Assembly (NCBI GenBank): GCA_964531045.1
Contig: CAZHDL010000001.1
Location: 3,828-33,780, forward strand
Direction of reading: 5' to 3'
Source: an uncultured Bdellovibrionales bacterium
GTDB taxonomy: Bacteria > Patescibacteriota > Minisyncoccia > Moranbacterales > UBA1568
Length of the DNA stretch: 29,953 nt
The translations under genes were made by a program, and so were the position numbers. Shown here one piece after another: positions 4,505 through 22,345 of the stretch (within the stretch, counting starts at the first letter, position 1; every line of letters begins with the position of its first letter). The notes beneath the pieces are model-generated. The model saw only the letters and a list, made by a program, of their open reading frames with translations, did no database searches and was not told the DNA's origin.

Positions 4505-6001
4505 ATGTCCAACCCACTGATTCAAGAATTGAAGAAGCATATCGCTGAGTTTCATCATGAGCCTAAGGCCGAGGCGGTAGGCACGGTACTTGAAATTGGT
4601 GACGGGGTAGCCCGTGTGGCTGGTCTCTCGGAGGTGATGGCTGGAGAAATGGTAGAGTTTGAAAACGGTGCGGTCGGTGTGGCCTTGAACCTGGAAGAGG
4701 GGGAGGCTGGAGTTATGCTCCTTGATGAAACCGGAACACTTGGTGAGGGAGCAACAGCCAAAAGTACCGGCAAGATTTTGTCAGTGCCCGTGGGAGAAGC
4801 CGTGATTGGCCGTGTTTTGTCGCCACTTGGTCTCCCGATTGATGGCAAGGGTGAAGTAATCGCTAAGGCCTACTATCCAGTGGAAAAAATTGCTCCTGGT
4901 GTTATTACTCGCCAGAGTGTCAATCAGCCGCTGCAGACCGGTATCAAAGCCATTGATGCGCTTATTCCGATTGGGCGCGGTCAGCGCGAGCTCATCATCG
5001 GTGATCGCCAGACAGGGAAGACCGCTATCGCAGTCGATACGATTATCAATCAGAAAGGTCAGGGAGTGATCTGTATCTATGTGGCCATTGGCCAGAAGGA
5101 ATCCAAGATTGCCCGTATCGTCGCTGAGCTCACGAAGAGTGGTGCTATGGACTACACGACGGTGGTGGTGGCTGGTGCTTCTGATCCTTCCGCACTGTCA
5201 TTTATCGCTCCCTACGCCGGGTGCGCTCTCGGCGAATACTTCATGGATCAAGGCAAAGACGTATTGGTTATTTATGATGATTTGTCCAAACATGCGGTTG
5301 CCTATCGACAGATTTCGCTCATCCTTCGTCGGCCACCAGGACGGGAGGCCTACCCGGGTGATGTGTTTTATGTTCACTCGAGACTCTTGGAACGCAGTGC
5401 CAAGTTGAATGCTGAAAATGGCGGCGGATCACTCACGGCGCTTCCTATCATTGAGACGCAGGCGGGTGATGTGTCTGCTTATATCCCGACCAACGTCATT
5501 TCCATCACGGACGGACAAATTTATCTGGAATCAGATTTGTTTTACAAAGGTATCCGTCCGGCACTGAACGTCGGTTTGTCGGTATCGCGTGTCGGATCGG
5601 CTGCTCAGATCAAGGCGATGAAACAGGTGTCGGGCACGCTGCGACTTGACTTGGCACAGTTTCGTGAGTTGGAAGCGTTTTCTCAGTTCGGATCTGATCT
5701 CGATGAAAAGACGCGAACCTTGATTGAGCGCGGACGACGTGCGGTAGAAATGCTCAAGCAGCCACAGTATGCTCCATTGCCGGTAGAAAAAGAAGTGGCC
5801 GTGCTCTATGCGCTTACTCGTGGGCATGTCGATGATATCGCGGTGGAGGAAATAGCTCGTTTTGAGCGGGAATTTTTGAGTTATCTTGAGAACGAGGGGA
5901 AGGGAGTCGGTGAAGCGATTTTGAAAGAACGAGCGCTTACTCCAGAAGTGGAAGAGTTATTGAAAAAGCATATCGCGACATTCAAGCAGGCATTTGTGTA
6001 A
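4505..6001 (+). CDS. atpA: F0F1 ATP synthase subunit alpha
   Basis: [25 protein letters not shown] (Walker A), [21 protein letters not shown]. Confidence 0.99.
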
Positions 6002-6110
6002 ATTTCTAATTTTCAATTTCTAATTTCTAAACAATTTCCAATGTCACAATTTCAAAATTAAGAAATTAAAGCATTGTTTGAAAATTGAGAATTAAAAATT
6101 GAAAATTCAT
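6001..6110. repeat. AT-rich 7-nt-periodic imperfect hairpin (atpA-atpG spacer)
   Basis: Left arm AATTTCTAATTTTCAATTTCTAATTTCTAAACAAT matches the reverse complement of right arm ATTGTTTGAAAATTGAGAATTAAAAATTGAAAATT at about 28/35 positions by my manual alignment. Confidence 0.85.
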
Positions 6111-6115
6111 TTGTT

Positions 6116-7039
6116 ATGGCTTCAGCACGAGACATTAGACGGCGCATCAAGGGAGTGAAAGGCACGGGTAAGATTACTCGGGCCATGGAGATGATTTCGG
6201 CTGTCAAAATGCGGAAGGCTGTACAGCGTGTGCTTGCTATTCGTCCCTATGCCGAGAATGCCATCAGGCTTTTGGAACAACTGAAAAGAGCAGTAGGAGA
6301 CGAAGAGCAGCATGTTCTCTTGACGAATCGCCCGGTCAAGCGGGAGTTGTACGTTGTCATCACGAGCAATCGCGGATTGTGTGGAGCCTTCAATGCTCAG
6401 ATCGTGAAGCGTTTGCGTCAGACGTTGAAAGATGATGCCGAGAGAGAACGGGTTTTTGTCACTGTCGGAAAAAAAGGAGAGAATGCCGTGCGGCGGATGC
6501 TTGCTACTCCCGGGAAGTGGGGAGGCATCATCGCTTCTTTTCCTGATGTGCTCACGACGCCGACTGCGGAAGGTATGCGAGCGCTTGCCAAGTTGATTAT
6601 CGAAGAATTTGAAACGGGTCGAGTGGATCGGGTGGTTATGGTGTATACCGACTATGTATCGATGCTCTCTCAGGAAGTGAAAGTGCGAGCACTCTTGCCG
6701 GTCGCTCTCAAGGATACCAGGAAGGCTATGCACGAGATGAGTGGGCACCCTTCGACAGGTTCGGGGTCTTTTGCGGTGAAAGAGTATGTGATCGAACCGA
6801 CGCCCAAGAAAGTGTTGTGGCAGATGATTCCTCGTTTGCTTGAGATGGAGCTCTACCATGCCGTCCTCGAAAGTAACGCCTCACAGGAGTCCGCCCGGAT
6901 GATGGCCATGCGCAATGCTACCGATGCGGCCAAAGATATGGTGTCGGACTTGACCTTGGCCTACAATCAGTTGCGCCAGGGCAAGATTACCCAGGAGATT
7001 GCTGAATTGTCAGCGGGCATGGCAGCAGTGCAAAAGTAG
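6116..7039 (+). CDS. atpG: F0F1 ATP synthase subunit gamma
   Basis: KITRAMEMISAVKM, ITSNRGLCGAFN, ARMMAMRNATD, RQGKITQEIAE. Confidence 0.98.
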   Translation: MASARDIRRRIKGVKGTGKITRAMEMISAVKMRKAVQRVLAIRPYAENAIRLLEQLKRAVGDEEQHVLLTNRPVKRELYVVITSNRGLCGAFNAQIVKRLRQTLKDDAERERVFVTVGKKGENAVRRMLATPGKWGGIIASFPDVLTTPTAEGMRALAKLIIEEFETGRVDRVVMVYTDYVSMLSQEVKVRALLPVALKDTRKAMHEMSGHPSTGSGSFAVKEYVIEPTPKKVLWQMIPRLLEMELYHAVLESNASQESARMMAMRNATDAAKDMVSDLTLAYNQLRQGKITQEIAELSAGMAAVQK

Positions 7040-7042
7040 AAT

Positions 7043-7099
7043 GTGGAATTTAGAATCTGGAATATTGGAAAAACCAAAATTTTAGATTCTAAATTCTAC
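7043..7099. repeat. 7-nt-periodic inverted repeat after atpG
   Basis: GTGGAATTTAGAATCT (7043-7058) vs AGATTCTAAATTCTAC (7084-7099): 15/16 complementary. Confidence 0.85.
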
Positions 7100-7122
7100 A
7101 CTCGAATTTAGAAAGTTGTTTG

Positions 7123-7155
7123 GAAAAAAAAGAGCCTCGGCGCAGTGCGACGAGG
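7123..7155 (-). terminator. Intrinsic terminator of the antisense cassette in the atp operon
   Basis: Minus strand CCTCGTCGCACTGCGCCGAGGCTCTTTTTTTT; related to the terminators at 13715, 14204 and 14706. Confidence 0.8.
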
Positions 7156-7176
7156 TTGGGTGGGTTCTTTTTGATA

Positions 7177-7389
7177 TCAGGAATCTTGTGGCGGTCCCAT
7201 CAGGATGATGATGCCAAGGACAACGATGGTAATACCAGCGACATCCAAAAGCGCATATTGAAATGGAGTGAGCTTTTTCTCCAGTAAGAAGATGGCAACC
7301 ATCCCTAGTACAACGAGTGCGATACCAAGCGAGAACCGGAGCAGCAGACTTTGGCTCAGGTGAGTACTCCAGCGGGAGAGACGATTCAT
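7177..7389 (-). CDS. Small two-TM membrane protein (70 aa), antisense within the atp operon
   Basis: MNRLSRW...FSLGIALVVLGMVAIF...VAGITIVVLGIIILMGPPQDS; own promoter and terminator; ATG at 7389 chosen because it lies downstream of the promoter. Confidence 0.72.
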   Translation of the reverse strand: MNRLSRWSTHLSQSLLLRFSLGIALVVLGMVAIFLLEKKLTPFQYALLDVAGITIVVLGIIILMGPPQDS

Positions 7390-7455
7390 GTTTGAGGAGT
7401 TTCTCTGAAAAATTCGTGCTCGTTGGCACTGATAGTGAAAGAACAGCGGGTATCC

Positions 7456-7484
7456 AGAGTAACAACAAAACGAGGAAGCGTCAA
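7456..7484 (-). promoter_or_regulatory. Sigma70-type promoter of the antisense cassette
   Basis: Minus strand TTGACG, 17 bp, TACTCT; followed by boxA-like CTGTTCTTTCACTA and a GTGC...GCAC hairpin (7416-7429). Confidence 0.65.
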
Positions 7485-7550
7485 TGAGGAGAGGAAATTG
7501 TTTTTCGGTTTGAGTGCCACAGAGTTTCATGGGACACTGAAACAGTATAA

Positions 7551-8960
<1,410 letters not shown>

Positions 8961-8962
8961 AG

Positions 8963-9075
8963 AAATTTTCAGTTTTCAATTTACAATTTTCAATCAATGA
9001 ACCAATGTTTCAATAACGCATTTGGAAAATTGAGGAATTGAAAATTCAATGAAAATTGATCATTGGTAATTGAAC
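8963..9075. repeat. AT-rich 7-nt-periodic imperfect inverted repeat (atpD-atpC spacer)
   Basis: TTTTCAA/TTTACAA units on the left, TTGAAAA units on the right; ACCAATG/CATTGGT pair. Confidence 0.75.
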
Positions 9076-9078
9076 ATC

Positions 9079-9525: not shown

Positions 9526-9558
9526 AATGGAATTTTTGACGCAAAAGGAGTAGAATAC

Positions 9559-9591
9559 AGGCGAGGTGATATTCCTCGCCTTTTCTATTTT
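9559..9591 (+). terminator. Intrinsic terminator of the atp operon
   Basis: AGGCGAGG-tgatatt-CCTCGCCT followed by TTTCTATTTTT. Confidence 0.8.
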
Positions 9592-9605
9592 TAAAACAAA
9601 ACACT

Positions 9606-10607: not shown

Positions 10608-10628
10608 AGAAGAGTCTTGTGGAAGAAG

Positions 10629-10714: not shown

Positions 10715-13621
10715 ATGATCATGAAAAAGACCTACGATCCGAAGAAAATTGAGGGGAAGTGGCAGAAGGTCTGGGCCAAAGAGGGTATACCAAAAAAGAC
10801 CGGTACCAAAGGCAAAGGGAAATTCTATATTCTCGATATGTTTCCCTATCCATCGGGTGATGGTCTTCATGTGGGACACGTCGAGAATTTTACCGCCACG
10901 GATATCCTGGCTCGGTTCAAGCGATTTCAAGGGCACGACGTACTCCGGCCGATGGGGTGGGATGCCTTTGGCCTGCCGGCAGAGAATTTTGCTATCAAAA
11001 CCGGGATTCATCCCAAGATAAAAACGCTCCAATCTATCAAAAATTTCAAGCGGCAGATGCAGTCCATTGGGCTTTCGTATGATTGGAGTCGTGAGATCAA
11101 TACCTCGAGCCCAGAGTACTATCGCTTTACGCAGTGGATGTTTCTCTTTTTGTATAAAAATGGTCTGGCCTACAAGAAGAAGGCCAAAGTGAACTGGTGC
11201 GAATCCTGTCATACGGTACTTGCCAATGAGCAGGTGATTGATGGCAAGTGTGATCGCTCCGGCGACATCGTGATCCAAAAAGATCTGGAGCAGTGGTTTT
11301 TCAAAATTACTGATTTTGTCGAACCTACGACATCGCCAACAGGAAAAAAAGTGTCCGGGTTATTGTCCGGTCTCGACAAGATTGATTGGCCGGAATCCAC
11401 GAAGGCCGCGCAGCGGCACTGGATTGGTCGCTCCGAGGGGACAGAAGTCGTGTTCTATGTGGTTGATACAGAGGAAGAGGTGCGAGTATTTACGACGCGT
11501 CTCGATACTATCTATGGTTGCACCTATGTGGTCATCGCACCAGAACATAGCTTGATTGCAGATTTGAAATTGCAGATTGAAAATTGGATAGAAGTAGAAA
11601 AATATATTGCGACCACAAAGAAAAAGACTGATCTCGAGCGGACGGAGCTGAACAAGGACAAGACGGGTGTGTGTCTGCAGGGGATTGAAGTGGTGCATCC
11701 GTTTACGGGAGAACGTCTGCCGGTCTATGTCGCGGACTATGTTCTCGGAACCTATGGCACCGGGGCAGTCATGGGTGTGCCGGCGCATGATGAGCGCGAC
11801 TTTGCTTTTGCCAAGAAATATGAACTTCCCATGCTGCATACCATTGCTCCCTATATTGAAATGGGTGGAGCATGTACGCCAAGAAAGGATAAGAAAACTG
11901 CTTCTCGTGATTGTGCTACAGCTATCGTGTTGGACGAATCTGGTAAACGGATTTTGCTTTTGCGCCGCAAGAAAGGCGGTACGTATGTTTTTCCGGGTGG
12001 TGGTATTGAAGAGGGAGAAACCTCCGAAGAAGCTATTTTTCGAGAGATTAAAGAAGAGACTGGTTATCAAAATTTTACCTTGGAAGCATTGGCTATCCCG
12101 GTGCTATACGGACGAGGCTTTAAACCACATAAGGATGTGAATTGTTTTGATAGTGATAGAATCTTTGTGGCTCAGTTGATTAATCAGGAAAAGTTAGAGA
12201 TCGCTCAAGATGAGCATGAAACACACGAAATTTTCTGGGAGGAGACGTCGAAATTAGTAGGAAAACCTGATTTGGCTGAGCATCACGAATTTATTTGGAA
12301 GGTTTTTTCTGAGAAAGAAAAAGTATATACGGAAGATGGGATTTTGTATGATTCGAAAGAATTCTCAGGGTTGACGTCGAAAGAAGCTCGAGAAAAAATG
12401 ACGGCGTGGCTCCGGAAAGAAAAACTTGGCAAGAAAGTGGTGAACTACCGTCTGCGCGATTGGCTTATCTCGCGTCAGCGGTACTGGGGCGCGCCCATTC
12501 CGATTATCTCCTGTGACAGCTGTGGTACTGTACCGGTGACGGAGAAGGATCTCCCTGTGAAACTGCCAACGGATGTAGACTTTCGTCCGACCGGAGAGTC
12601 GCCACTCGTCCGTTCCAAGAGTTTCCATAAAGTGAAGTGTCCACAGTGCGGCAAGAAAGCCAGGCGTGAGAGTGACACCATGGACACGTTTGTCTGTTCG
12701 AGCTGGTACTATCTGCGTTTTGCTGATCCTCACAATGAAAAGGTGTTTGCCTCGAAAAAGGCTTTGGAAAAATACCTCCCGGTTGATTTCTATATGGGTG
12801 GTGCCGAACACACGGTACTGCACCTGCTCTATGCGCGCTTTTTTACCAAGGCACTCATGAAGTATGGGCAAGTGGAGTTCGACGAGCCGTTTCAAAAACT
12901 GCGTCACCAGGGGATGATTTTGGCGCCGGATGGCAACAAGATGTCGAAGTCCAAAGGGAATGTCATCAATCCTGATCAGATGGTCGCCGAATTTGGAGCG
13001 GACAGTCTCCGTCTCTATGAGATGTTTATGGGGCCACTGGATGAAATGAAGGCCTGGAATACGGGCAGTATTATCGGGGTACGACGGTTCTTGGAGAAGG
13101 TATGGAAATTGGAGTCAAAAGTGAAAAGTGAAAAGTTAAAAGGACAAATCAAAAGTGATACTTTGGAAAGTCTCGTGCATCGGACGATAAAGAAAGTGAC
13201 AGAGGATATTGAAGAATTGAAATTCAATACGGCTATCAGTGCTCTCATGATTCTCGTGAACGAGATGGAAAAGGCCCCTTCACTACCAGCTGCCAGCTAC
13301 CAGCTGCTCTTGATCCTTCTCAGTCCATTCGCTCCACATATCGCCGAAGAACTGTGGGCGCAGTCGGGAGAAAAGAAGTCTATTTTTCTTGCGCCATGGC
13401 CGAAATATGATGCCAAGAAAATCGTGGCTGAAACAGTGAATGTGGCGGTGCAGGTGAATGGCAAAGTGCGTGCTGTTATTGCTATACAGAGTGGCACGAG
13501 CGAAGAGGATGTAAAGACTCAGGCGCTTGCCGATACCAATGTTAAACTTCATCTTGCCGACAAAACCGTCCGCAAGGTTATCTACGTGCCTGGAAAAATC
13601 GTCAGTATCGTGGTGGGTTGA
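10715..13621 (+). CDS. leuS: Leucine--tRNA ligase with an inserted Nudix hydrolase domain
   Basis: MFPYPSG, HVGH (HIGH), CP1 editing region (FTTRLDT, GTGAVMGVPAHDERD), DWLISRQRYWG, KMSKS, C-terminal AVQVNGK. Nudix box GGGIEEGETSEEAIFREIKEETG at about 11996-12064. Confidence 0.98.
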   Translation: MIMKKTYDPKKIEGKWQKVWAKEGIPKKTGTKGKGKFYILDMFPYPSGDGLHVGHVENFTATDILARFKRFQGHDVLRPMGWDAFGLPAENFAIKTGIHPKIKTLQSIKNFKRQMQSIGLSYDWSREINTSSPEYYRFTQWMFLFLYKNGLAYKKKAKVNWCESCHTVLANEQVIDGKCDRSGDIVIQKDLEQWFFKITDFVEPTTSPTGKKVSGLLSGLDKIDWPESTKAAQRHWIGRSEGTEVVFYVVDTEEEVRVFTTRLDTIYGCTYVVIAPEHSLIADLKLQIENWIEVEKYIATTKKKTDLERTELNKDKTGVCLQGIEVVHPFTGERLPVYVADYVLGTYGTGAVMGVPAHDERDFAFAKKYELPMLHTIAPYIEMGGACTPRKDKKTASRDCATAIVLDESGKRILLLRRKKGGTYVFPGGGIEEGETSEEAIFREIKEETGYQNFTLEALAIPVLYGRGFKPHKDVNCFDSDRIFVAQLINQEKLEIAQDEHETHEIFWEETSKLVGKPDLAEHHEFIWKVFSEKEKVYTEDGILYDSKEFSGLTSKEAREKMTAWLRKEKLGKKVVNYRLRDWLISRQRYWGAPIPIISCDSCGTVPVTEKDLPVKLPTDVDFRPTGESPLVRSKSFHKVKCPQCGKKARRESDTMDTFVCSSWYYLRFADPHNEKVFASKKALEKYLPVDFYMGGAEHTVLHLLYARFFTKALMKYGQVEFDEPFQKLRHQGMILAPDGNKMSKSKGNVINPDQMVAEFGADSLRLYEMFMGPLDEMKAWNTGSIIGVRRFLEKVWKLESKVKSEKLKGQIKSDTLESLVHRTIKKVTEDIEELKFNTAISALMILVNEMEKAPSLPAASYQLLLILLSPFAPHIAEELWAQSGEKKSIFLAPWPKYDAKKIVAETVNVAVQVNGKVRAVIAIQSGTSEEDVKTQALADTNVKLHLADKTVRKVIYVPGKIVSIVVG

Positions 13622-13640
13622 AAGAAGATCATACAGGGTT

Positions 13641-13699
13641 AAAAGTTGAAAGTTATAAAGTTGAAAGTTTATAAAGTGGAAGGTTGAAAGTAGGAAAGT
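13641..13699. repeat. Left 7-nt-periodic arm flanking the cassette array
   Basis: GAAAGTT-type units; 13641-13661 AAAAGTTGAAAGTTATAAAGT is the exact reverse complement of 15466-15486. Confidence 0.85.
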
Positions 13700-13714
13700 C
13701 CTTAGATTCAGGAT

Positions 13715-13747
13715 AAAGAAAAAGCCCCGGCGCAGTTGTGCGCAGGG
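13715..13747 (-). terminator. Terminator of cassette C
   Basis: Minus strand CCCTGCGCACAACTGCGCCGGGGCTTTTTCTTT. Confidence 0.8.
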
Positions 13748-13775
13748 ACAAGAGTTATCGATGAGGTGTTCGTCT

Positions 13776-14114
13776 CTAGAGAGAGGGCGGGATGCTCACT
13801 CGGTGGATGAAACAGAGGTAGAAGGTCGTGGCCACGAAGGTGGTGAAGCCCACCTCGAATTGATGATCAGTGATCCACCCATCTGGTCGGCACTCAGAGA
13901 CCGCATCGGTCATCAAGAGGACACAGAGACTGGCACAGCCACCGAGCAGGCCAGTCACCATGAGCTTGGTCACGCCAATCCCGAGCAGATGCGCGAGAGG
14001 CGCTTGAGCACCCAATTCATGGAAGCCGACAGCAAGGATCATGAGAAGTGTCATCGTGGCAAAACTGCAGAACGATGGTTCGTTGCTGTTGCGAGCGAGA
14101 GATTGGCTGGTCAT
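13776..14114 (-). CDS. Small hydrophobic membrane protein (112 aa, about 3 TM), cassette C
   Basis: GGAG RBS before ATG 14114 (MTSQSLARN...); three hydrophobic stretches; own promoter and terminator. Confidence 0.65.
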   Translation of the reverse strand: MTSQSLARNSNEPSFCSFATMTLLMILAVGFHELGAQAPLAHLLGIGVTKLMVTGLLGGCASLCVLLMTDAVSECRPDGWITDHQFEVGFTTFVATTFYLCFIHRVSIPPSL

Positions 14115-14174
14115 GGCAGGCTCCAGGGTAAGTGTGCCATTGGGCACGGGTTTGGTAAGGCACTGTAACGAAAA

Positions 14175-14203
14175 ATGATAGCGCCTCTCTGTATAAAAGT
14201 CAA
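14175..14203 (-). promoter_or_regulatory. Promoter of cassette C
   Basis: Minus strand TTGACT, 17 bp, TATCAT. Confidence 0.75.
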
Positions 14204-14231
14204 GAAAAAAGCCCCGGCGTTGCGCGGGGCG
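14195..14231. repeat. 37-bp exact direct repeat, copy 1 (terminator fused to the next -35)
   Basis: AAAAGTCAAGAAAAAAGCCCCGGCGTTGCGCGGGGCG, identical to 14697-14733. Confidence 0.95.
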
Positions 14232-14241
14232 GGGTCTCGAC

Positions 14242-14382
14242 CTACCTCTTGGGGAGGCGCGAGGCGAGGAGGAGTCCTCCGATGACGACGAGGACCAGTC
14301 CCAAGATAAGTACTCCGGTGTCCGAAGTTTTGAGAATGGCCAGGCCTATCGAGGCAATGAAAAACCCCAGAGTGATTCTCAT
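14242..14382 (-). CDS. Small two-TM protein (46 aa), cassette B gene 2
   Basis: MRITLGFFIASIGLAIL...ILGLVLVVIGGLLLASRLPKR; ATGA start/stop overlap with the upstream gene at 14379-14382. Confidence 0.68.
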   Translation of the reverse strand: MRITLGFFIASIGLAILKTSDTGVLILGLVLVVIGGLLLASRLPKR

Positions 14383-14630
14383 AGGCAGCGTTTTCGTTTT
14401 GCTCGGTGAAAAAGGACAACGCCGGCAAGAGTCACCGCCAGTCCGACCAGGGTACCGAAGCCGTTGATGGCCAGGATGGGAGATGTCCCTGCGAGGGCAA
14501 TCATCTTGAGGCCAAGCAGGCTGACGGCAATCCCAAGAGCGAGGGAAAGGCACAGCCTTAGGGTGGTTAGGATGGTGAGAAGCATCCTTTTGATCTGACA
14601 CCGGCAGTGTACCGGCCGACCGCTAGACAT
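14379..14630 (-). CDS. Small two-TM protein (83 aa), cassette B gene 1
   Basis: GAAGGG RBS before ATG 14630 (MSSGR...LALGIAVSLLGL...VGLAVTLAGVVLFHRAKRKRCL). Confidence 0.68.
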   Translation of the reverse strand: MSSGRPVHCRCQIKRMLLTILTTLRLCLSLALGIAVSLLGLKMIALAGTSPILAINGFGTLVGLAVTLAGVVLFHRAKRKRCL

Positions 14631-14676
14631 GGTGGTTCCCTTCGTGTTGAATTGACAAAGATCTTGGTAACGCGGA

Positions 14677-14705
14677 ATGGTAGCGTCTCTTGGTGCAAAA
14701 GTCAA
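14677..14705 (-). promoter_or_regulatory. Promoter of cassette B
   Basis: Minus strand TTGACT, 17 bp, TACCAT; boxA-like GATCTTTGTCAAT follows (14651-14663). Confidence 0.72.
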
Positions 14706-14733
14706 GAAAAAAGCCCCGGCGTTGCGCGGGGCG
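14697..14733. repeat. 37-bp exact direct repeat, copy 2 (terminator fused to the next -35)
   Basis: Identical to 14195-14231, 502 bp apart. Confidence 0.95.
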
Positions 14734-14757
14734 AGGGTTGAGGTCGGCCAACTTGAG

Positions 14758-14949
14758 TCAGTGGCCGTGGAAGCCCCTGAAGAAGAGTTTGGCTCCGCCC
14801 CAGATGAGCACGATACCAGCGACAACACCGGTGATATTCCAGGGAAAGTCAGGAATCAGTGCGAAGAGGGCAGTGGCAAGACCAGAAAACCAGATTAGTC
14901 CGCCAATGTACATGTATGCGGCATAGCGCGCAGCAGTTCCGTTGTTCAT
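14758..14949 (-). CDS. Small two-TM protein (63 aa), cassette A gene 2
   Basis: AAGGAG RBS; MNNGTAARY...IGGLIWFSGLATALF...VAGIVLIWGGAKLFF. Confidence 0.75.
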   Translation of the reverse strand: MNNGTAARYAAYMYIGGLIWFSGLATALFALIPDFPWNITGVVAGIVLIWGGAKLFFRGFHGH

Positions 14950-14979
14950 GTTGACTCCTTGCTCTGAAGAGCGTTGGGT

Positions 14980-15195
14980 TTAGGGCTTCTTGGGGAAGGC
15001 GTAGGCAATGAGGGCGCTGCCGGCTACCATCACAACCAGACCAAGAATGACGAACAGGTCCTGGCCAAGCGTGTCGGTACTCGTTGGTTGAGCAATCTTT
15101 ATCAGGATCGCCAAGCGACTGATATTGCCAGTTATGGTCACCGAGAGGCCAACGGAAAAAAGCATCAATCCGAAGGCAAACTTATTGCGGTTCAT
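14980..15195 (-). CDS. Small two-TM protein (71 aa), cassette A gene 1
   Basis: GAAAGG RBS; MNRNKFAFGLMLFSVGLSV...ILGLVVMVAGSALIAYAFPKKP. Confidence 0.75.
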   Translation of the reverse strand: MNRNKFAFGLMLFSVGLSVTITGNISRLAILIKIAQPTSTDTLGQDLFVILGLVVMVAGSALIAYAFPKKP

Positions 15196-15258
15196 GAAGA
15201 ACCTTTCGTGGTTGGTGTGCCAGTGGCACGGGATTGGTAAGGCAACTTGTAACCGTCC

Positions 15259-15287
15259 ATTATAGCAGAAAATACAGAAAAAGTCAA
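15259..15287 (-). promoter_or_regulatory. Promoter of cassette A (near consensus)
   Basis: Minus strand TTGACT, 17 bp, TATAAT. Confidence 0.85.
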
Positions 15288-15415
15288 TACCGCACCATTT
15301 CTGGCTCTATCTGGGTACATCTGTGTGCTGAAGAGTATTTGCCTCCGGCTTTCGTCTGCGGAATATCGCAATCTCTACTTGAAAAGGGTACGGGACAGGC
15401 GAGATGAATAAACAG

Positions 15416-15424
15416 TGCTAGAAT
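15416..15424 (+). promoter_or_regulatory. Extended -10 element upstream of glmS
   Basis: TGCTAGAAT about 105 nt upstream of the glmS ATG. Confidence 0.45.
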
Positions 15425-15455
15425 AGAGGTATCGGTCTAATTCAAAATTCGATAT

Positions 15456-15524
15456 TCAACTTTCCACTTTATAACTTTCAACTTTTCACTTGTTACTTTT
15501 AACTTTCCACATTTTTAACTTTCA
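15456..15524. repeat. Right 7-nt-periodic arm flanking the cassette array
   Basis: AACTTTC-type units; 15466-15486 is a perfect 21-bp inverted copy of 13641-13661. Confidence 0.85.
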
Positions 15525-15529
15525 CCCCT

Positions 15530-17398
15530 ATGTGTGGCATCGTTGGCTATATCGGCAGACGTGAGGCAAATGATCTGCTCATCGAAGGGCTTCATCGGCT
15601 GGAGTATCGGGGGTACGATTCGGCTGGGATTTCCATTCTTCACTCTGGAGAGAATCTAAAATCTAAAATCAAAAATCTAAAATCAAAGAATCATCTTGTG
15701 ACGGTACGGGCTCTTGGAAAAGTTGAGAATCTTGAAAAAAAGGTGGGAGAAAAAATGAAAGGGTCTGTGGGCATCGCTCATACTCGGTGGGCCACCCATG
15801 GCAAGCCGTCGGAGAAGAATGCTCATCCGCATACGGACTGTGCCGGTCAAATCGCACTCGTTCACAACGGTATTATCGAAAACTATAACGAGCTGAAGGA
15901 GGATCTCGTGAAACAGGGGCATCTCTTTGCGTCTGAGACGGATACGGAGGTAATCGCTCATCTGATCGAAGAACATTTGAAAGAGAAGGATGATTTTGAG
16001 GCGGCATTTACGGAGGCGCTCAAGCACCTGCGTGGGACGTACGGGATTGCAGCGGTGGCACTCTCTCAACCGAACAAACTCTTTGTGGCTCGGATGGGGA
16101 GTCCGCTTTTGATCGGAGTAGGGAAGGATGAGTATTTTGTCGCGTCCGATGTTTCTGCTGTACTCGCTCATACGAAACGCGTCGTGTATTTGGAAGATGG
16201 TGAACGAGCCGTCATCACTCGCGATGGCTATGTGGTCAAGTCCGGTAAGATCATTCAGAAAAAAACAGTTTCGGATGTGGAGTGGTCAGAAAAAGAAGCC
16301 AAGCGCGGTGGGTACCCACACTTCATGCTCAAGGAAATTTTTGATCAACCAGAGAGCTTTGCTGATGCTTTGCGGGGCCGATTGCTTCCGGATGAGGGTA
16401 CAGCTCGACTTGGCGGTTTGCGTGAAGTGGAGAAGCGTTTGGAGGGTATACGACGCATTGTGATTGTGTCGTGTGGTACGTCGTCGTATGCCGGCCTGGT
16501 GGGGAAGTACATGCTCGAAGAATATGCCGGGATTCCGGTCGAGGTCGAGGTGGCTTCAGAGTTTCGTTATCGTAAAATGATGCTCGATAAATACACGGCC
16601 GTGCTCGGTATTTCTCAGTCGGGTGAAACGGCTGATACACTGGCGGCACTGCGTGAGGCGAAAAAGAAAGGAGCGCTCACACTTGGTATTGTGAACACGG
16701 TCGGTTCGACTATCGCACGGGAGACCGATGCCGGAGTGTACAACCATGCCGGGCCGGAAGTGTCGGTGGCCTCGACAAAGGCGTTTACCTCGCAATTGGC
16801 CATTCTCGCTCTCCTCACCCTCTATCTGGGACGGAAGCGTGGGATGTCGCTCGTCACGGGACAGCGTATAGCGCGTGAGCTTTTGAAACTGCCACGACTG
16901 ATGGAGCGAATCTTTGTGCAATCGGGGACGATAAAAAAGCTGGCCAAGAAGTATGCTCATCGGAAAAACTACCTCTATCTGGGACGCAAGTACAATTTTC
17001 CTATCGCCCTTGAGGGGGCTATCAAGGTGAAAGAGATTGCCTATGTGTCAGCACAGGGGTATCCGACGGGCGAAATGAAGCACGGGCCAATTGCTCTGGT
17101 GGATAAGGATGCCTTGGCGCTCTTCATCATGCCGCTTGATAGCGTGTATGAAAAAAGTGTTAGTGGCCTTGAGGAAATCAAAGCCCGAGGAGGAACGGTG
17201 CTCGCCATTACCACCGAGGGGAACACGGCGCTTGAAAAAAAGGCGGATGCAGTGGTGTATATCCCGAAGACGCTCGAAATGCTGACACCGATACTGTCCG
17301 TCATTCCGCTCCAGCTCTTTGCGTACCATATGAGCGTAGCTCTGGGCTATGACGTGGATAGGCCACGGAACCTGGCGAAAAGTGTGACGGTGGAGTAG
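15530..17398 (+). CDS. glmS: Glutamine--fructose-6-phosphate aminotransferase (isomerizing)
   Basis: MCGIVG, LEYRGYDSAG, HTRWATHG, VHNGIIEN, SETDTEV, SQSGETADT, GEMKHGP, PRNLAKSVTVE. Confidence 0.99.
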   Translation: MCGIVGYIGRREANDLLIEGLHRLEYRGYDSAGISILHSGENLKSKIKNLKSKNHLVTVRALGKVENLEKKVGEKMKGSVGIAHTRWATHGKPSEKNAHPHTDCAGQIALVHNGIIENYNELKEDLVKQGHLFASETDTEVIAHLIEEHLKEKDDFEAAFTEALKHLRGTYGIAAVALSQPNKLFVARMGSPLLIGVGKDEYFVASDVSAVLAHTKRVVYLEDGERAVITRDGYVVKSGKIIQKKTVSDVEWSEKEAKRGGYPHFMLKEIFDQPESFADALRGRLLPDEGTARLGGLREVEKRLEGIRRIVIVSCGTSSYAGLVGKYMLEEYAGIPVEVEVASEFRYRKMMLDKYTAVLGISQSGETADTLAALREAKKKGALTLGIVNTVGSTIARETDAGVYNHAGPEVSVASTKAFTSQLAILALLTLYLGRKRGMSLVTGQRIARELLKLPRLMERIFVQSGTIKKLAKKYAHRKNYLYLGRKYNFPIALEGAIKVKEIAYVSAQGYPTGEMKHGPIALVDKDALALFIMPLDSVYEKSVSGLEEIKARGGTVLAITTEGNTALEKKADAVVYIPKTLEMLTPILSVIPLQLFAYHMSVALGYDVDRPRNLAKSVTVE

Positions 17399-17427
17399 TT
17401 GATTGAGGCTTTGAAATGGGGTAGAAT
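17399..17427 (+). promoter_or_regulatory. Promoter for the exonuclease-PAP2-folD cluster
   Basis: TTGATT, 17 bp, TAGAAT. Confidence 0.55.
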
Positions 17428-17440
17428 GAGATAACTTGAA

Positions 17441-17535
17441 GAATTTTCAATTTTCAAAAAATGTATTAATTTCTCAATTTTGAAATTGTAACATTTGAAA
17501 TTGTTTTGAAATTAGAAATTGATACTTCGAAATTT
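17441..17535. repeat. AT-rich 7-nt-periodic imperfect inverted repeat
   Basis: AATTTTCAATTTTCAA...AATTTCTCAATTT on the left; TTGAAATTG/TTAGAAATTG units on the right. Confidence 0.7.
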
Positions 17536-17539
17536 ATTT

Positions 17540-18211
17540 ATGCGCTCCACTATTCCCGACTATCTCCCGCTTGATCGGCCGCTTATCATTTTTGACCTGG
17601 AAACGACCGGACTATCGACCGGTGAAGACAAAATTGTCGAGTTGGCCTATGAGAAAATCATGCCGAGTGGCGAGGTGATAGCCTACTGTGAGCGTATTGA
17701 TCCTGGGATGCCGATGCCTGAGGATGCGAGCCGTATCAATGGTATTTACGACAAGGATCTGGTGGGATGTCCCAGCTTTGCCAAGTTGTCCTACGAATTG
17801 TGGAATATGTTTGAAGGTTCGGATGTCGGAGGATTCAATATCACTGGTTTTGACCTACCCTTCCTTCGTGGTGAGTTTTCGAGTGTTGGGAAAAATTTTG
17901 ATTTTACCAAGAAGCGTGTGCTTGATGCGAAGATCTTGTATCATAAAATGGAGGCTCGCAACATGTTTGCTGCTCGCAATCTGTCCGCTGCCTACAAATT
18001 GTACTGTGGAAAGGAACACAATACCGCTCATACCGGAGCGGGGGATGTTCGAGTGACAGTTGAGGTACTGGAAAAGCAGTTGGAGCGCTATCCGGAATTT
18101 CGGAATTGGGAGTACTTGGCAGAGCTGCACGGGAATAAGAAACTTTTGGAATCAGCGAAGACGGAACACAATCCGATGCCGGCAGCGAAGCCGATGGGAA
18201 CGTTGTTTTAG
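17540..18211 (+). CDS. DEDDh 3'-5' exonuclease (DnaQ/epsilon-like)
   Basis: ExoI FDLETTG, ExoII GFNITGFDLPFL, ExoIII AHTGAGDV; ATG 17540 preferred. Confidence 0.9.
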   Translation: MRSTIPDYLPLDRPLIIFDLETTGLSTGEDKIVELAYEKIMPSGEVIAYCERIDPGMPMPEDASRINGIYDKDLVGCPSFAKLSYELWNMFEGSDVGGFNITGFDLPFLRGEFSSVGKNFDFTKKRVLDAKILYHKMEARNMFAARNLSAAYKLYCGKEHNTAHTGAGDVRVTVEVLEKQLERYPEFRNWEYLAELHGNKKLLESAKTEHNPMPAAKPMGTLF

Positions 18212-18246
18212 AAGGCATCGTCTCGTATCAAGGAACAAACAAACAT

Positions 18247-18741
18247 ATGGACGCGATTATTCTTTTTGGAGCTGAGTATCTGTATCTGGCGATTGTGATT
18301 TTGGCACTGGCCTATCTGGTTGTTGTGCCGAAGAAACAGTCTTCAGAGGTGCTGGTAGCTGCTTTGTTCACCCTGCCACTGACCTACTTGGTGGCCAAGG
18401 GTATGAGTGCACTCTATTATGATCCGCGCCCCTTTGTGGTAGGAGGCTTTGCCCCGCTGTTGCCACATGCTCCAGATAACGGCTTTCCTTCAGATCACAC
18501 GCTGCTTTCGGCGGCTATCGCCATGGTCATCTTTTCTTTTGAGCGTCGCTTGGGAGTATTGTTGATGGGCATAGCTTTTACGGTGGGGGTGGCCCGTGTA
18601 TTGGCCGGCGTCCATCACCTGACTGACATAGTGGGAAGTATGGTGATCGCTTCTCTTCTTACGTATGTGGTTGCGCGGTTTTTGCTTCCACGGGTGTGGC
18701 AGCACATGCCTCGTGCGCTCTATAAATTTTTTGTACACTGA
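18247..18741 (+). CDS. PAP2 family membrane phosphatase (undecaprenyl-diphosphatase-like)
   Basis: K...PRPF, FPSDHT, ARVLAGVHHLTD motifs; four TM segments. Confidence 0.9.
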   Translation: MDAIILFGAEYLYLAIVILALAYLVVVPKKQSSEVLVAALFTLPLTYLVAKGMSALYYDPRPFVVGGFAPLLPHAPDNGFPSDHTLLSAAIAMVIFSFERRLGVLLMGIAFTVGVARVLAGVHHLTDIVGSMVIASLLTYVVARFLLPRVWQHMPRALYKFFVH

Positions 18742-18744
18742 TTC

Positions 18745-19590
18745 ATGGCACTCCTCTCTGGAACATTGATAGCGGAACGCATACTGACCGAAACAGGGGA
18801 TCGTATTCGTCAATCCTCGGTGACGCCGGGACTGGCGGTGATTTTGGTCGGAGACGAACTCGAATCACAGAAGTATGTCGGTCTCAAGGAAGCGCGCGCT
18901 CTGGAGGTGGGTGTTGCTTTTGAAAAATTTCTTTTTTCGACGGACGCAGCGCCAGAAGAAGTGATGCATTGTATCGAAACCTTGAATACACGAGCGGATA
19001 TTCATGGCATCATCGTGCAGCTACCCTTACCACAGGGTTTTCCGACGGATGACATCATTGCCCATATCAATCCCAAGAAGGACGTGGATGGATTTCATGA
19101 AAAAACACTGGAGCGCTTCTTGGGTGGTGACAAAACTGCCTGTCCGGTATTTCCTCGTGCCATCGTGGAACTTTTGAGAGCAACAGGACTGTCGTTTCAT
19201 GGGGAGAAAGCAGTCGTGGTCGTCAATTCAAATATTATCGGGCGTGTACTTTGTTTCGCGCTTTCTCTCGAAGGACTGAGTGCTGAATATGTGCTGAGTG
19301 CGGAGGGTCGGGATAGTATACAGGCTGAAACGAAGACGGCTCGGGTCGTGGTGACGGCTTGTGGTATCCCGGATTTGTTGACAGCGGATATGTTGTCGGC
19401 GGATGCAGTCATCATTGATGGGGGTAACGTTCATGTGGATGGCAAAGTGCAGGGTGATGTGAAACGTGATGAAGTGGAGGAGAAAGTAGCCTTTTTGTCG
19501 CCAGTACCAGGGGGAGTGGGCCCGGTGACGGTGGCGACGCTCCTCGCCCGGGTCACGGACGCCGCGTTGGCAATTTCTGGAGTTATATAA
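18745..19590 (+). CDS. folD: Methylenetetrahydrofolate dehydrogenase/cyclohydrolase (divergent dehydrogenase motifs)
   Basis: PGLAVILVG, YVGLK, GIIVQLPLP, KDVDGFH, SPVPGGVGP. Confidence 0.92.
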   Translation: MALLSGTLIAERILTETGDRIRQSSVTPGLAVILVGDELESQKYVGLKEARALEVGVAFEKFLFSTDAAPEEVMHCIETLNTRADIHGIIVQLPLPQGFPTDDIIAHINPKKDVDGFHEKTLERFLGGDKTACPVFPRAIVELLRATGLSFHGEKAVVVVNSNIIGRVLCFALSLEGLSAEYVLSAEGRDSIQAETKTARVVVTACGIPDLLTADMLSADAVIIDGGNVHVDGKVQGDVKRDEVEEKVAFLSPVPGGVGPVTVATLLARVTDAALAISGVI

Positions 19591-19610
19591 TGGAAGAAAA
19601 TGAAATAATA

Positions 19611-19650
19611 CATTTAGCATATATCCACGACCGTGGATATATGCTAAATG
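19611..19650. repeat. Perfect 19-bp inverted repeat with 2-nt spacer
   Basis: CATTTAGCATATATCCACG-ac-CGTGGATATATGCTAAATG, between convergent folD and tRNA-Leu. Confidence 0.95.
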
Positions 19651-19687
19651 GTAAGCAAAAAACAGCTGATTAAAGCTGTTTTATGTG

Positions 19688-19770
19688 TGCCGAGGGAGGG
19701 ACTTGAACCCTCATGATATTGCTATCGCGGGATTTTGAGTCCCGTGTGTCTACCATTCCACCACCTCGGC
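19688..19770 (-). tRNA. tRNA-Leu(CAA)
   Basis: Minus strand GCCGAGGTGGTGGAATGGTAGACAC-ACGGGA-CTCAAAA-TCCCGC...GAGGG-TTCAAGT-CCCTC-CCTCGGC-A; long variable arm; CCA not encoded. Confidence 0.95.
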
Positions 19771-19814
19771 ATTTTCCTTTGAATAAGCCAAAGCCAAAAA
19801 AAGGGCACAGAAGC

Positions 19815-19854
19815 AGGATAGAAAATTGATAATCATTTGTCAATGGACTATAAT
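19815..19854. promoter_or_regulatory. Overlapping divergent promoters (tRNA-Leu and parAB)
   Basis: Plus: TTGATA (19826-31), 17 bp, TATAAT (19849-54). Minus: TTGACA (19843-38), 17 bp, TATCCT (19820-15). Confidence 0.7.
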
Positions 19855-19959
19855 AGAGGAGCTTCTTAGGAAGTATCTTTTTAGCTTATTAGAAAATAAA
19901 AATCTGGTGCGGCTTGTCTTTGTGCTACAAGCTAATACGCTACCAGCTACCAGCTGTGT

Positions 19960-20751
19960 ATGGCCAAAGTTATCGGATTCGTCAATCAGAAAGGCGGAGT
20001 GGGAAAAACCACTTCGACGATTAATGTTGCCACGTATTTGGCGCAGGCTGGCAAGAAAGTGCTCTTGGTTGATCTTGATCCGCAGGGGAATGCCTCCTCG
20101 GGTCTTGGTATTGATGCCAGGCGTCTGGAAAAAAACCTCTACCATGCCATGATTCTCGGATTGCCAACGCAGGAAATCGTCCTTCGAACAGAGACAGAGG
20201 GGCTTCATATTGTACCGGCAGCACAAGATTTGGCTGGGGCGGAGATAGAAATGGTTCATATTGAAAATCGCGAATTTCGACTCCATACAGCACTACGTCA
20301 GGTACGACCATACTACGACTATATTTTGATTGATAGTCCGCCATCTCTCGGGCTACTCACTATCAATGGTCTCGTCGCCTCAGATGAAGTGATTATTCCG
20401 GTGCAGACGGAATACTATGCGCTCGAGGGACTATCGCAGCTCTTGGGCACTATCGAGCTGGTGCGTGAGCATCTGCAACCAAATTTGAAAATTGGTGGAG
20501 CACTCCTCACGCTGTATGATCGGCGCAACCGCTTGGCACGGCAGGTCGTGTCAGAGGTGCGGTCACACTTTCCTGGGCCGGTATTTGAAAATGTCATCCC
20601 TCGTTCGGTGCGTTTGGCGGAAGCCCCTTCTTTTGGAAAGTCTATTTTGGACTTCGATGCTTTTTCCAAAGGAGCCCGGGCGTATCGGGGCGTCGTGAAA
20701 GAGTTGATCGCTCGTGAGGAAGAAGAAAAGAAAAAACCAAAAGTACTTTGA
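19960..20751 (+). CDS. parA: ParA/Soj chromosome partitioning ATPase
   Basis: NQKGGVGKTT, DLDPQGNA, DSPPSLG, PVQTEYYALEG, PRSVRLAEAPSFG. Confidence 0.97.
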   Translation: MAKVIGFVNQKGGVGKTTSTINVATYLAQAGKKVLLVDLDPQGNASSGLGIDARRLEKNLYHAMILGLPTQEIVLRTETEGLHIVPAAQDLAGAEIEMVHIENREFRLHTALRQVRPYYDYILIDSPPSLGLLTINGLVASDEVIIPVQTEYYALEGLSQLLGTIELVREHLQPNLKIGGALLTLYDRRNRLARQVVSEVRSHFPGPVFENVIPRSVRLAEAPSFGKSILDFDAFSKGARAYRGVVKELIAREEEEKKKPKVL

Positions 20752-20872
20752 AATAATTTCCAATTTACAAATCCCAATTTACAATAAATTTAACAATGAC
20801 TAAATTTTCAATTGTGAAACTGAAACATTGGAATATTGATTGAAAATTGAAAACTGATAATTGAAAATTACA
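20752..20872. repeat. AT-rich 7-nt-periodic imperfect inverted repeat (parA-parB spacer)
   Basis: CAATTTA/AATTTTC units on the left; ATTGAAA units on the right. Confidence 0.75.
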
Positions 20873-20877
20873 AACAT

Positions 20878-21834
20878 ATGGCTTCACAGCAATACGGATT
20901 AGGTCGGGGGCTAGCATCGCTCATCCCGCCCAAAAAGATGGCGCAGAACGTTCCGGAAGGAGCCCATGCTTCCCCGTCTCCGTTTGTCATCAATCCAGTG
21001 TCGCAACCAGCACATGAGCCTATGGCTGCTCCGGCAGTTGCTCCGTCTGCTCCCGCTCTTTCTTCTGGGCTGGCGGAGATTGCGGTTGGTAGTATTGTAC
21101 CCAACCCACACCAGCCACGACTGCATTTTGATGAAGCGAAACTTACGGAATTGGCGAATTCAATCAAAGAACACGGTATTTTGCAGCCGCTCGTTGTGAG
21201 CAAAAACGGTGATCAGTACGAGCTTATTGCCGGAGAACGTCGTTTTCAGGCAGCCAAGCGCATTGGTCTTGCGACTGTTCCGGTGATCATTCGCGATGTG
21301 ACAGAACAAGAGAAATTGGAATTGGCTATTATCGAAAATGTGCAGCGGCACAACTTGAATCCAATTGAAGAAGCCAAGGCGTATTTGCGTCTGGTAGATG
21401 AGTTTGGTCTTTCTCAGGAAGGCGTAGCGGAAAAAATGGGGAAGAGTCGCAGTGTGGTAGCCAATACGCTACGTCTCCTCAATCTGCCTATAGAGATTCA
21501 GCGTGCCGTAGCCGAAAACAAAATAAGCGAAGGACATGCTAAAGCGCTACTTTCTATTGAAAATCCGGAGAAGCAACGAGCGGTCTTTGACCTTATTATC
21601 AAGGAGGAATTGACCGTGCGAGAAACGGAACAGAAGGTACGGAGTATCTCGGTCAAGCCATACGTGCGGAGTGCTGTCGCGCTCAATCCGGAAATTTTGG
21701 AACGCACCGAGCATCTGACGCAGATTCTGGGCACCAAGGTGAAAATCGCTCCATCTGGTAAAGGCGGCAAGGTACTCATCGAATACTATTCCCCAGAAGA
21801 TTTGGATGGACTATTGAAGAGACTCGAGGAGTAA
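20878..21834 (+). CDS. parB: ParB/Spo0J partitioning protein
   Basis: GLGRGL, PNPHQPR, GILQPL, IAGERRFQA, ENVQRHNLNPIEEA, HTH region, SEGHAKALL. Confidence 0.97.
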   Translation: MASQQYGLGRGLASLIPPKKMAQNVPEGAHASPSPFVINPVSQPAHEPMAAPAVAPSAPALSSGLAEIAVGSIVPNPHQPRLHFDEAKLTELANSIKEHGILQPLVVSKNGDQYELIAGERRFQAAKRIGLATVPVIIRDVTEQEKLELAIIENVQRHNLNPIEEAKAYLRLVDEFGLSQEGVAEKMGKSRSVVANTLRLLNLPIEIQRAVAENKISEGHAKALLSIENPEKQRAVFDLIIKEELTVRETEQKVRSISVKPYVRSAVALNPEILERTEHLTQILGTKVKIAPSGKGGKVLIEYYSPEDLDGLLKRLEE

Positions 21835-21881
21835 CTCTCGAATTTTCAATTTTCAAACACCAATTTTCATTGAATGTTTCA

Positions 21882-22247
21882 ATGATACAATCCAACAAAC
21901 AAAAAGAATACGATCTTGAGGAGAGAACAGCGAAGTTCGGTGAGTCAATTGTTTCTTTTTGTAAGGATGTGAAGCGTGATACCGTTGCGGCACCGCTCAT
22001 CAATCAACTCATTCGTTCTGGTACCAGTGTCGGCGCTAACTACTGCGAAGCAAATAATGCGTCTTCAAAAAAGGATTTCCGAAACAAGATATTTATTTCC
22101 AAAAAAGAGGCCCAGGAGACCAAATACTGGCTTCGAATGATGGCTCAAGCGGTACCGGATAAAAAAGACAAACTAAAGGTTTTATGGAAAGAATGTCAGG
22201 AACTCACGATGATTTTTCAGAAAATTTGTTCTTCATTGGATAAATGA
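21882..22247 (+). CDS. Four-helix-bundle protein (23S rRNA intervening-sequence protein / Avd-like family)
   Basis: DLEERTAKF, QLIRSGTSVGANYCEA, SKKDFRNKIFISKKEAQETKYWL; flanked by 7-mer arms at 21836-21880 and 22245-22340. Confidence 0.9.
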   Translation: MIQSNKQKEYDLEERTAKFGESIVSFCKDVKRDTVAAPLINQLIRSGTSVGANYCEANNASSKKDFRNKIFISKKEAQETKYWLRMMAQAVPDKKDKLKVLWKECQELTMIFQKICSSLDK

Positions 22248-22345
22248 AAATTGAAATATTGGAAATTTATTGTAAATTGTAAATTGATGCTTGGAAATGG
22301 AGTTGTGTTTTTAAGCAAAGATTAGAAATTGAAAATTGTTTTATC

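Follow-up and report, generated by a model that had tools for sequence, protein, structure and literature searches.

The stretch of DNA analysed here (the window; 29,953 nucleotides, contig C1:3828-33780) probably carries copies of one kind of insertable cassette, a hairpin with arms of tandem heptamers that occurs in an empty form and in a form bearing a gene of the four-helix-bundle family PF05635, and that has spread with turnover of its arms. The best reading of the comparisons described below is that these cassettes have the same build as the intervening sequences (IVSs) of rRNA that bear an open reading frame (ORF), but are situated at operon junctions. Each cassette would consist of two inverted tandem-heptamer arrays; between them would lie a PF05635 gene or, in the empty form of ∼100-125 nt, a short loop. 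The host is a tiny, uncultured, Moranbacteria-like bacterium of the candidate phyla radiation (CPR), with a genome of 1.07 Mb in 128 contigs (48% G+C). This genome is labelled G000; about 50 congeners, labelled G001 onwards, were used for comparison, with the neighbourhoods of parB, atpG and leuS taken from 30 congeners each.

A preliminary description of the window, made from its letters alone, had named five short spacers as inverted repeats of 7-mers. All five are indeed inverted repeats of tandem heptamers, and all of the coordinates hold. The hairpins, to which no strand is assigned, are given here with the z-scores of their folds, each obtained against 200 dinucleotide-preserving shuffles.

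6002 to 6115, no strand: gene-less hairpin of GAAAATT type that fills the atpA|atpG spacer, with arms of ∼4 heptamers and an inner CAATG...CATTG pair (fold z −3.3)
7042 to 7101, no strand: near-perfect hairpin of 22 bp plus, made of GAATYTR heptamers, directly 3' of atpG (−30.6 kcal/mol, z −9.7)
8961 to 9069, no strand: gene-less GAAAATT-type hairpin within the atpD|atpC spacer (z −1.6), matched over its full length by the query for the dispersed family described below
17441 to 17535, no strand: gene-less GAAATTG-type hairpin, flanked by glmS and the RNase T-like exonuclease gene (z −2.3), an 88% match to the same family query (G000:C1:21269-21360)
20752 to 20877, no strand: gene-less hairpin of AATTTMC/GAAAATT type that fills the parA|parB spacer (z −2.2)

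Shuffled sequences folding as well as the original numbered 0/200 for both 6001-6115 and 7040-7110, 12/200 for 8961-9069, 5/200 for 17430-17540 and 6/200 for 20752-20877. Two spacers (6001-6115 and 7040-7110) are strong alone and three are individually marginal, because AATT-rich sequence pairs easily with itself; jointly, the five lie far beyond chance. The common design has AATTTYC-like units in the left arm and GAAAATT-like units in the right arm, with the exception of the hairpin at 7043-7099, whose GAATYTR heptamer differs from that of the other four. The heptamer is not a single word, and units of GAAAATT, GAATCTR, AAAGTTG, TAAAATC and CTACCAG types are all found in the window. Homology of the arms across sites, also proposed from the letters alone, is confirmed by a 17-mer at 20775-20791 that is the exact reverse complement of 22263-22279, for which 0.00 matches are expected by chance; the position implied earlier for this partner was right within a base or two.

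Among short periods, 7 is the one that stands out in the 1.07-Mb genome. A genome-wide census returned 26 runs at lag 7 with at least 17/21 matches, in comparison to 0-6 at every other lag from 4 to 12; at 16/21 matches the count was 44, in comparison to 0-18 at the other lags. Of the 429 spacers of 40-220 nt in the genome, 102 fold with z < −3 (against mononucleotide shuffles), and approximately a dozen of these 102 are clean period-7 hairpins of several heptamer types. The spacer folds, together with arms-only folds of the pairs that enclose genes (scored against 500 shuffles, see below), bear out the claim that the arms are more complementary than shuffled sequence. Chance pairing of low-complexity, AT-rich spacers, for which the z-scores of only −1.6 to −2.3 in three of the five spacers might be quoted, is extremely improbable as an explanation: no other period comes near period 7 in its counts, exact 17-mer and 21-mer complements are present against an expectation of 0.00, other phyla have the same design in GC-rich versions, and presence or absence varies between species.

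The stems were also considered as Rho-independent terminators. This was ruled out by their length, their G+C content of 18-26% and the lack of T tracts. A terminator scan made no calls on the arms except for a weak match at the parB stop codon, and the matches of a promoter scan to the arms were weak (9/12) and not above shuffle expectation.

The gene-bearing form lies near the right end of this series of hairpins, between parB and a LamG-repeat gene, and is made up of three parts.

21836 to 21881, + strand: 5' arm of the gene-bearing element, with AATTTTC units, then CCAATTTTCATTG, then CAATG containing the start codon
21882 to 22247, + strand: four-helix-bundle gene of 121 aa (PF05635 / TIGR02436; Pfam E 1.4e-15), spanning the loop from start codon to stop codon
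22248 to 22345, + strand: 3' arm, with an inner ATGAAAATTG block, an extra small hairpin and an outer GAAATTGAAAATTG block that ends 1 nt before the ATG of the next gene

The encoded protein scores 57.9 bits with Pfam (cut-off 33.8) and 78 bits with TIGR02436 (vs 24; E 5.9e-22), and matches PDB entry 2RLD with E 6e-14. Its frame is intact, with no internal stops, and it keeps the family core Q..R...S...N..E, residues Q42, R45, S49, N53 and E79 being invariant in an alignment of 27 sequences. The arms around the gene (21836-21885 / 22241-22345) fold with z −3.2, and 1 of 500 shuffles was as good. The start codon within CAATG pairs with a CATTG six bases before the stop codon; therefore, the PF05635 ORF is exactly the loop of the hairpin.

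The association between this gene family and the heptamer arms, first suggested by the single case in the window, extends to every sample that was compared. The genome carries two PF05635 genes, the second on contig C4 (83.3 bits with TIGR02436), and both (2/2) lie in the loops of heptamer hairpins between co-directional operon genes (parB and LamG in the window, an ABC ATPase and a permease for the other copy). Matches to PF05635 occur in 28/41 genomes of the order, with 0-13 in each, and 14/24 congeners are positive. At approximately 25 of 30 loci from relatives the ORF is bracketed by heptamer arrays, the heptamer differing from locus to locus and the arms being complementary. Furthermore, a sample of 75 PF05635 loci was collected from CPR, Bacteroidota, Acidobacteriota, Firmicutes, Planctomycetes, Omnitrophota, Elusimicrobiota and other phyla, drawn with an 11-sequence subfamily alignment and hence biased to the subfamily nearest the query. 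Lag-7 runs were present in 41 upstream and 40 downstream flanks of this sample, in comparison to 7 or fewer for any other lag, and inverted complementarity of the arms (scored by Smith-Waterman alignment against shuffles) exceeded z = 3 at 47 loci and z = 5 at 33.

The same junctions were seen without a hairpin, with a gene-less hairpin and with a gene-bearing hairpin, which constitutes a natural experiment within one genus. The parA|parB junction measures 0-17 nt in 14 congener species (including G009, G043 and G055), holds a hairpin of 75-141 nt in about 10 species, with at least five different heptamers, and reaches 441-443 nt in G041 and G023, where a PF05635 gene lies between GAATCAA or GGTATCR arms. 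Likewise, atpA|atpG measures 3-30 nt in 7 species and 461 nt, with a PF05635 gene, in G020; four species have a GC-rich, non-periodic hairpin there, and elsewhere it holds heptamer hairpins of at least six types. A 30-species tree was built from ParB, AtpG and the C-terminus of LeuRS, in which G000 is sister to G001. On this tree the minimum number of changes between occupied and absent is 8 for atpA|atpG (26 species) and 7 for parA|parB (21 species). Absent, empty and gene-bearing states alternate, and the elements at orthologous junctions are not vertically fixed, in agreement with the mobility of the element that the preliminary description had proposed.

Other hairpin designs are found at atpA|atpG as well. 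In G014 and G041 (L088 and L089) the arms have period 8 (GTTAACNN units) and not 7. A second family of GC-rich, non-periodic hairpins of ∼140 nt occupies the junction in G006, G017, G051 and G019 (L064, L065, L068 and L072). In G006 and G017 the left arm resembles an inverted copy of the resident spacer, which stands alone in G044 (L063), and this hints at a fold-back duplication at insertion.

Recent movement is most apparent at atpA|atpG. The 114-nt element is identical at 113/114 positions, without gaps, between G000 and G002 at the same site, in comparison to 75-77% identity over the 400 nt on either side. In G056, which belongs to the other main clade, the element is 93% identical, minus two heptamers, between flanks of 68-74% identity. 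The sister species G001 lacks the element, with a spacer of 3 nt, and G016 provides an empty-site allele that shares the atpA end and the final 11 bases 5' of atpG, which fixes the insertion point. Used as a DNA query, the element found matches in 28/50 congeners and none in 22/50. There were 17 matches in G000, 24 in G002, 30 in G056 and 27 in G050, many of them full-length, with 80-88% identity, and at unrelated loci. In G000 the family is present at 18 loci, with approximately 8 full hairpins of 98-123 nt; nearly all of these loci are intergenic, with two short fragments placed within crudely called ORFs, and the full-length hairpins mostly abut a stop or a start codon. Moreover, between G009 and G055, which are near-identical species, the differences are a 105-nt hairpin and the last ∼50 nt of atpA, which have diverged, the sequence beyond being identical; this points to recombination, by which a copy was gained or lost here as a short patch.

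These data bear directly on an alternative in which the hairpins are regulatory structures made by the host in place: slippage would build the arrays, fold-back or template-switching would invert them, and they would be kept as operon punctuation (mRNA processing, stability, start-codon control), the four-helix gene being a passenger. Such an origin is in keeping with the finding that, among long simple repeats, those of heptanucleotides are the most common in many bacteria, slippage having been proposed for them (cited in PMC4679880), with the private heptamer of each site or species and with right arms that finish a few bases before start codons. Solitary arrays 5' of hsp20, glmS and such genes in several congeners fit equally, as does the G006/G017 hairpin with its left arm like the inverted G044 spacer. 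We nevertheless consider it unlikely. It leaves unexplained the 99% identity of the whole 114-nt element, loop included, between flanks of 75-77% identity, the dispersed family with conserved loops that is absent from 22/50 congeners, and the termini shared by empty and gene-bearing forms; selection at the RNA level also lacks G·U support on the sense strand (see below).

The shared termini were found by comparing the gene-bearing element of G001 with the empty element. The right ends agree at 33/35 positions, including the sub-terminal ATTGTTTG, and the left ends at 32/40, as fits a full/empty pair. The empty family is short and non-coding, with terminal inverted repeats and many dispersed copies, so the earlier comparison of the empty forms with MITEs (miniature inverted-repeat transposable elements) is well founded for the GAAAATT family, in respect of both its dispersal among 28/50 congeners and its ends. 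The form with ends matching the empty family encodes PF05635 and not a transposase. Like MITEs and repetitive extragenic palindromic (REP)-type palindromes, the window family is small, AT-rich, intergenic and multi-copy, with inverted-repeat ends and a patchy occurrence in close relatives, and like MITEs it has empty-form termini that match a longer, gene-bearing form. Unlike both, that longer form encodes a four-helix-bundle protein in a genome with no REP-associated tyrosine transposase (RAYT/Y1), and the arms have an internal period of 7 nt and vary from lineage to lineage.

Helix 25 of 23S rRNA is a classic site for an IVS. The rRNA genes of G000 itself are missing from the assembly, so the link to IVSs is drawn from congeners. 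In G041, the 23S rRNA gene carries a gene-less insert of ∼150 nt after model position 583, at the tip of helix 25, with CAAAATK / ATTTTGA heptamer arms (fold z −3.3). Inserts in the 23S genes of G042 and G029 are without heptamer arms or PF05635. The 23S genes of G042 (L093) and G041 (L094) span 3726 and 4595 nt, respectively, in comparison to a model of 2925 positions, with several further insertions. The Coxiella IVS is reported to have a terminal stem of 28 bp, three to four tandem heptamers, varying in copy number among strains, directly 5' of the S23p start, and an RNase III cut at the first repeat (Warrier et al., 2016, PMC4990558). The relation to rRNA intervening sequences given in the preliminary description is thus supported from two sides, by the helix-25 heptamer hairpin of a congener and by the heptamers before the Coxiella ORF. 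A survey of CPR rRNA insertions has described 23S_rRNA_IVP ORFs in 16S and 23S inserts, and a literature search for PF05635 genes in heptamer hairpins as a general theme returned the Coxiella case only.

The cassettes share several characteristics with ORF-bearing 23S IVSs (those of Coxiella burnetii in helix 45 with the S23p ORF, of Leptospira, and of Salmonella in helices 25 and 45), namely the same protein family in the loop, a long stem formed by terminal inverted repeats and a sporadic distribution suggesting transfer. As in Coxiella (PMC4990558), tandem heptamers stand next to the start codon of the window PF05635 gene. However, the copies in the window lie between protein-coding operon genes and not in rRNA helix 9, 25 or 45; they form a mostly gene-less, multi-copy family, and their excision by RNase III is proposed by analogy.

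Intergenic heptamer arrays have been described in other bacteria, including GGGAATC in Xanthomonas, often in inverted pairs (70-75 convergent pairs) and with no gene named (PMC4692102), GGGGAYT in Nostoc, TAACTGA in Beggiatoaceae, Cyanobacteria and Bacteroidetes, and the cyanobacterial short tandemly repeated repetitive (STRR) sequences. As in the window, these are tandem 7-mers, mostly intergenic and often near gene ends or start codons (PMC4692102, PMC4679880). Those papers name neither an enclosed gene family nor a link to rRNA IVSs, whereas the arrays in the window bracket a defined gene or a conserved loop, with filled and empty alleles. For the module of a gene within a heptamer hairpin, what this genus contributes is a set of sites at which filled, empty and absent alleles all occur.

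It might also be argued that the arrays are primarily binding sites, occupied by one protein per 7 nt (the four-helix protein, or a single-strand binder of the cold-shock or S1 type), and that their inversion is secondary. Period 7 is kept as the sequence changes and arrays also occur singly in 5' untranslated regions (UTRs), as such a function would have it, and a relative of the four-helix protein, Avd, which serves diversity-generating retroelements as an accessory protein, binds both nucleic acid and reverse transcriptase. In addition, CspB has been reported to bind heptamer direct repeats with one protein per heptamer (PMC4679880). This explanation is quite unlikely, given that a heptamer differing at every locus is hard to square with a sequence-specific binder, that the arms are kept mutually complementary, which is needless for a simple binding array, and that genomes such as G003 have many arrays and no PF05635 gene. 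With Avd, the PF05635 proteins share a related four-helix-bundle fold and family (PMC10053308); unlike Avd, neither PF05635 gene of G000 adjoins a reverse transcriptase or a template/variable repeat pair.

The reverse-transcriptase gene of G000 (L092, G000:C119:439-1367, minus strand) is split over two frames on a 2.2-kb contig. An ORF of 127 aa upstream of it was tried as a candidate Avd and rejected (hhalign probability 0.4%).

A further pair of arms, together with an array inside a gene, was found around leuS and glmS.

13622 to 13715, no strand: array of AAAGTTG-type units after leuS, the left partner around minus-strand small-membrane-protein cassettes (arm-pair z −6.9)
15441 to 15529, no strand: right partner of the pair, an array of CAACTTT-type units that has a TGcTAGAAT promoter-like box on its 5' side and the glmS ATG on its 3' side (arm-pair z −6.9)
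15648 to 15690, + strand: in-frame array of six TAAAATC-type heptamers within glmS, giving 14 extra residues in a surface loop by comparison with congeners

The arm pair around the membrane-protein array, likewise noticed earlier, is real: the score of z −6.9 was reached by 0/500 shuffles, and the pair contains an exact 21-bp complement (13641-13661 / 15466-15486). The arms bracket three antisense small-protein cassettes, and the leuS|glmS spacer is 1.9 kb long in the window, while the sister species G001 has 28 nt there. Cassettes of this kind are also bracketed at the junction in G009 and G055, by different arms. From this one locus in the window and one in these two near-identical relatives, the loop may accept other cargo, as the preliminary description had proposed; however, the pair may not act as one hairpin.

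A conserved, extended −10-like box (TGNTAGAAT) lies 5' of glmS in several species (window 15415-15440; L100, L109, L110, L112 and L113), and in several species a heptamer array runs from this box up to the glmS start codon. The array is situated between the promoter-like box and the ATG, so it is probably a heptamer-repeat 5' UTR of glmS.

Within glmS itself, the array of 6 heptamers (14 residues) is missing in four congeners, the sister G001 among them, and in G002 the same loop carries an array of other heptamers. In-frame arrays were also seen in the essential genes tatD (316-359 and 578-617) and leuS (13109-13149 and 13285-13305), with a CTACCAG unit common to both. The leuS runs, examined as insertions, are not clear ones, since they lie in hypervariable loops of normal length; the glmS run is the only clean insertion. 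A pair of GAAAATT arrays on contig C77 was rejected as a second cargo site, because both have the same orientation, flanking hsp20, and do not make a hairpin.

Several observations weigh against the reading of these elements as insertable cassettes. The folds of three of the five spacers barely beat dinucleotide shuffles, and the 75-locus sample has the subfamily bias stated above. Several congeners have only the glmS-side array at leuS|glmS, and in the window the right arm is 3' of the promoter-like TGcTAGAAT box, so that the arm pair may never share one RNA. More generally, partnerless heptamer arrays occur 5' of genes and in frame inside genes (20/44 of the strong period-7 runs lie in crudely called ORFs, vs 0 for period 8), and not every heptamer run belongs to a hairpin cassette. 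With regard to a mobility mechanism, a single filled/empty pair (G000 or G002 vs G016) has AATT on either side of the insert; this may be a target-site duplication, but AATT is also part of the repeat unit. A Y1/RAYT transposase was looked for in the genome and not found, nor was a transposase parent with matching ends, and the sole reverse transcriptase (an RVT_1 match) is frameshifted and lies on another contig with no Avd-like neighbour. G003 has 19 matches to the family, yet no PF05635 gene. Finally, mismatches within the stems, counted as G·U vs A·C on the sense strand, were 61/81, 37/38 and 13/21, so that G·U is not in excess. The stems therefore give no sign of selection on an RNA hairpin of the sense strand, and the complementarity of the arms looks like a DNA-level property or the result of recent copying, rather than of long selection on one RNA strand.

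Taking the elements as insertable cassettes, a course of events can be proposed. In the gene-bearing cassette the ATG would lie in the last unit of the 5' arm, paired with a CAT shortly before the stop codon. The cassettes would be found where a self-folding insert does little harm, in the gap of a few bases that separates the stop codon of one co-transcribed gene from the start codon of the next, or at the tips of rRNA helices. In a transcript the arms would form a long stem which, by analogy with the 23S rRNA IVSs, RNase III would cut; a gene for RNase III is present at G000:C7:18060-18446. Empty forms would most likely derive from gene-bearing forms that lost the ORF lying inside the inner CAATG/CATTG pair. 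Spread within a genome would need a copy-and-paste route, none of the transposase type being encoded, and spread between species may occur, at least in part, through the recombination of short patches with an element on them. The heptamer arrays would turn over fast by slippage, so that the 7-mer becomes peculiar to each lineage or site, with the arms remaining complementary.

A bolder version of this proposal, doubtful as a whole and put forward tentatively, is that the PF05635 gene and its inverted heptamer arrays make up a new kind of self-propagating cassette. The protein would recognise the heptamer stem and, by means of host replication, repair or reverse transcription, place copies of the hairpin at gene junctions and rRNA helix tips, leaving rRNA IVSs, MITE-like empty forms and in-frame arrays such as that of glmS.

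How rRNA intervening sequences arose and spread has been a question since about 1990, as has the function of PF05635/TIGR02436, which is a very large family. In this genus, mobility, processing by RNase III and binding of the protein to the arms become directly testable. For annotation, the long AT-rich spacers of CPR operons, extra pieces of rRNA and odd inserts of 7 or 14 residues in conserved enzymes may share one cause.

Nearly all genes of the window are on the + strand. They comprise tatD, the atp operon (atpB-E-F-H-A-G-D-C), a DUF4349 gene and leuS with a Nudix insert, followed by the 1.9-kb stretch with minus-strand small membrane ORFs and then by glmS, the RNase T-like exonuclease gene, PAP2 and folD. 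After folD come a minus-strand tRNA-Leu, parA, parB, the 121-aa PF05635 gene and the LamG-repeat gene. In LeuRS (window 10715-13621) the Nudix domain (Pfam E 4.8e-16) is inserted at residues 399-519; open frames of leuS measure 958-985 aa vs 809-849 aa among congeners, which suggests that the insert is present in some species only. An antisense small-membrane-protein cassette is also found at 7102-7568, 3' of the hairpin at 7042-7101 and outside it, with a GC-rich terminator of the same type as those of the cassettes at 13720-15290. Among congeners (L062-L091), the atpG|atpD junction varies between 16 and 1212 nt.

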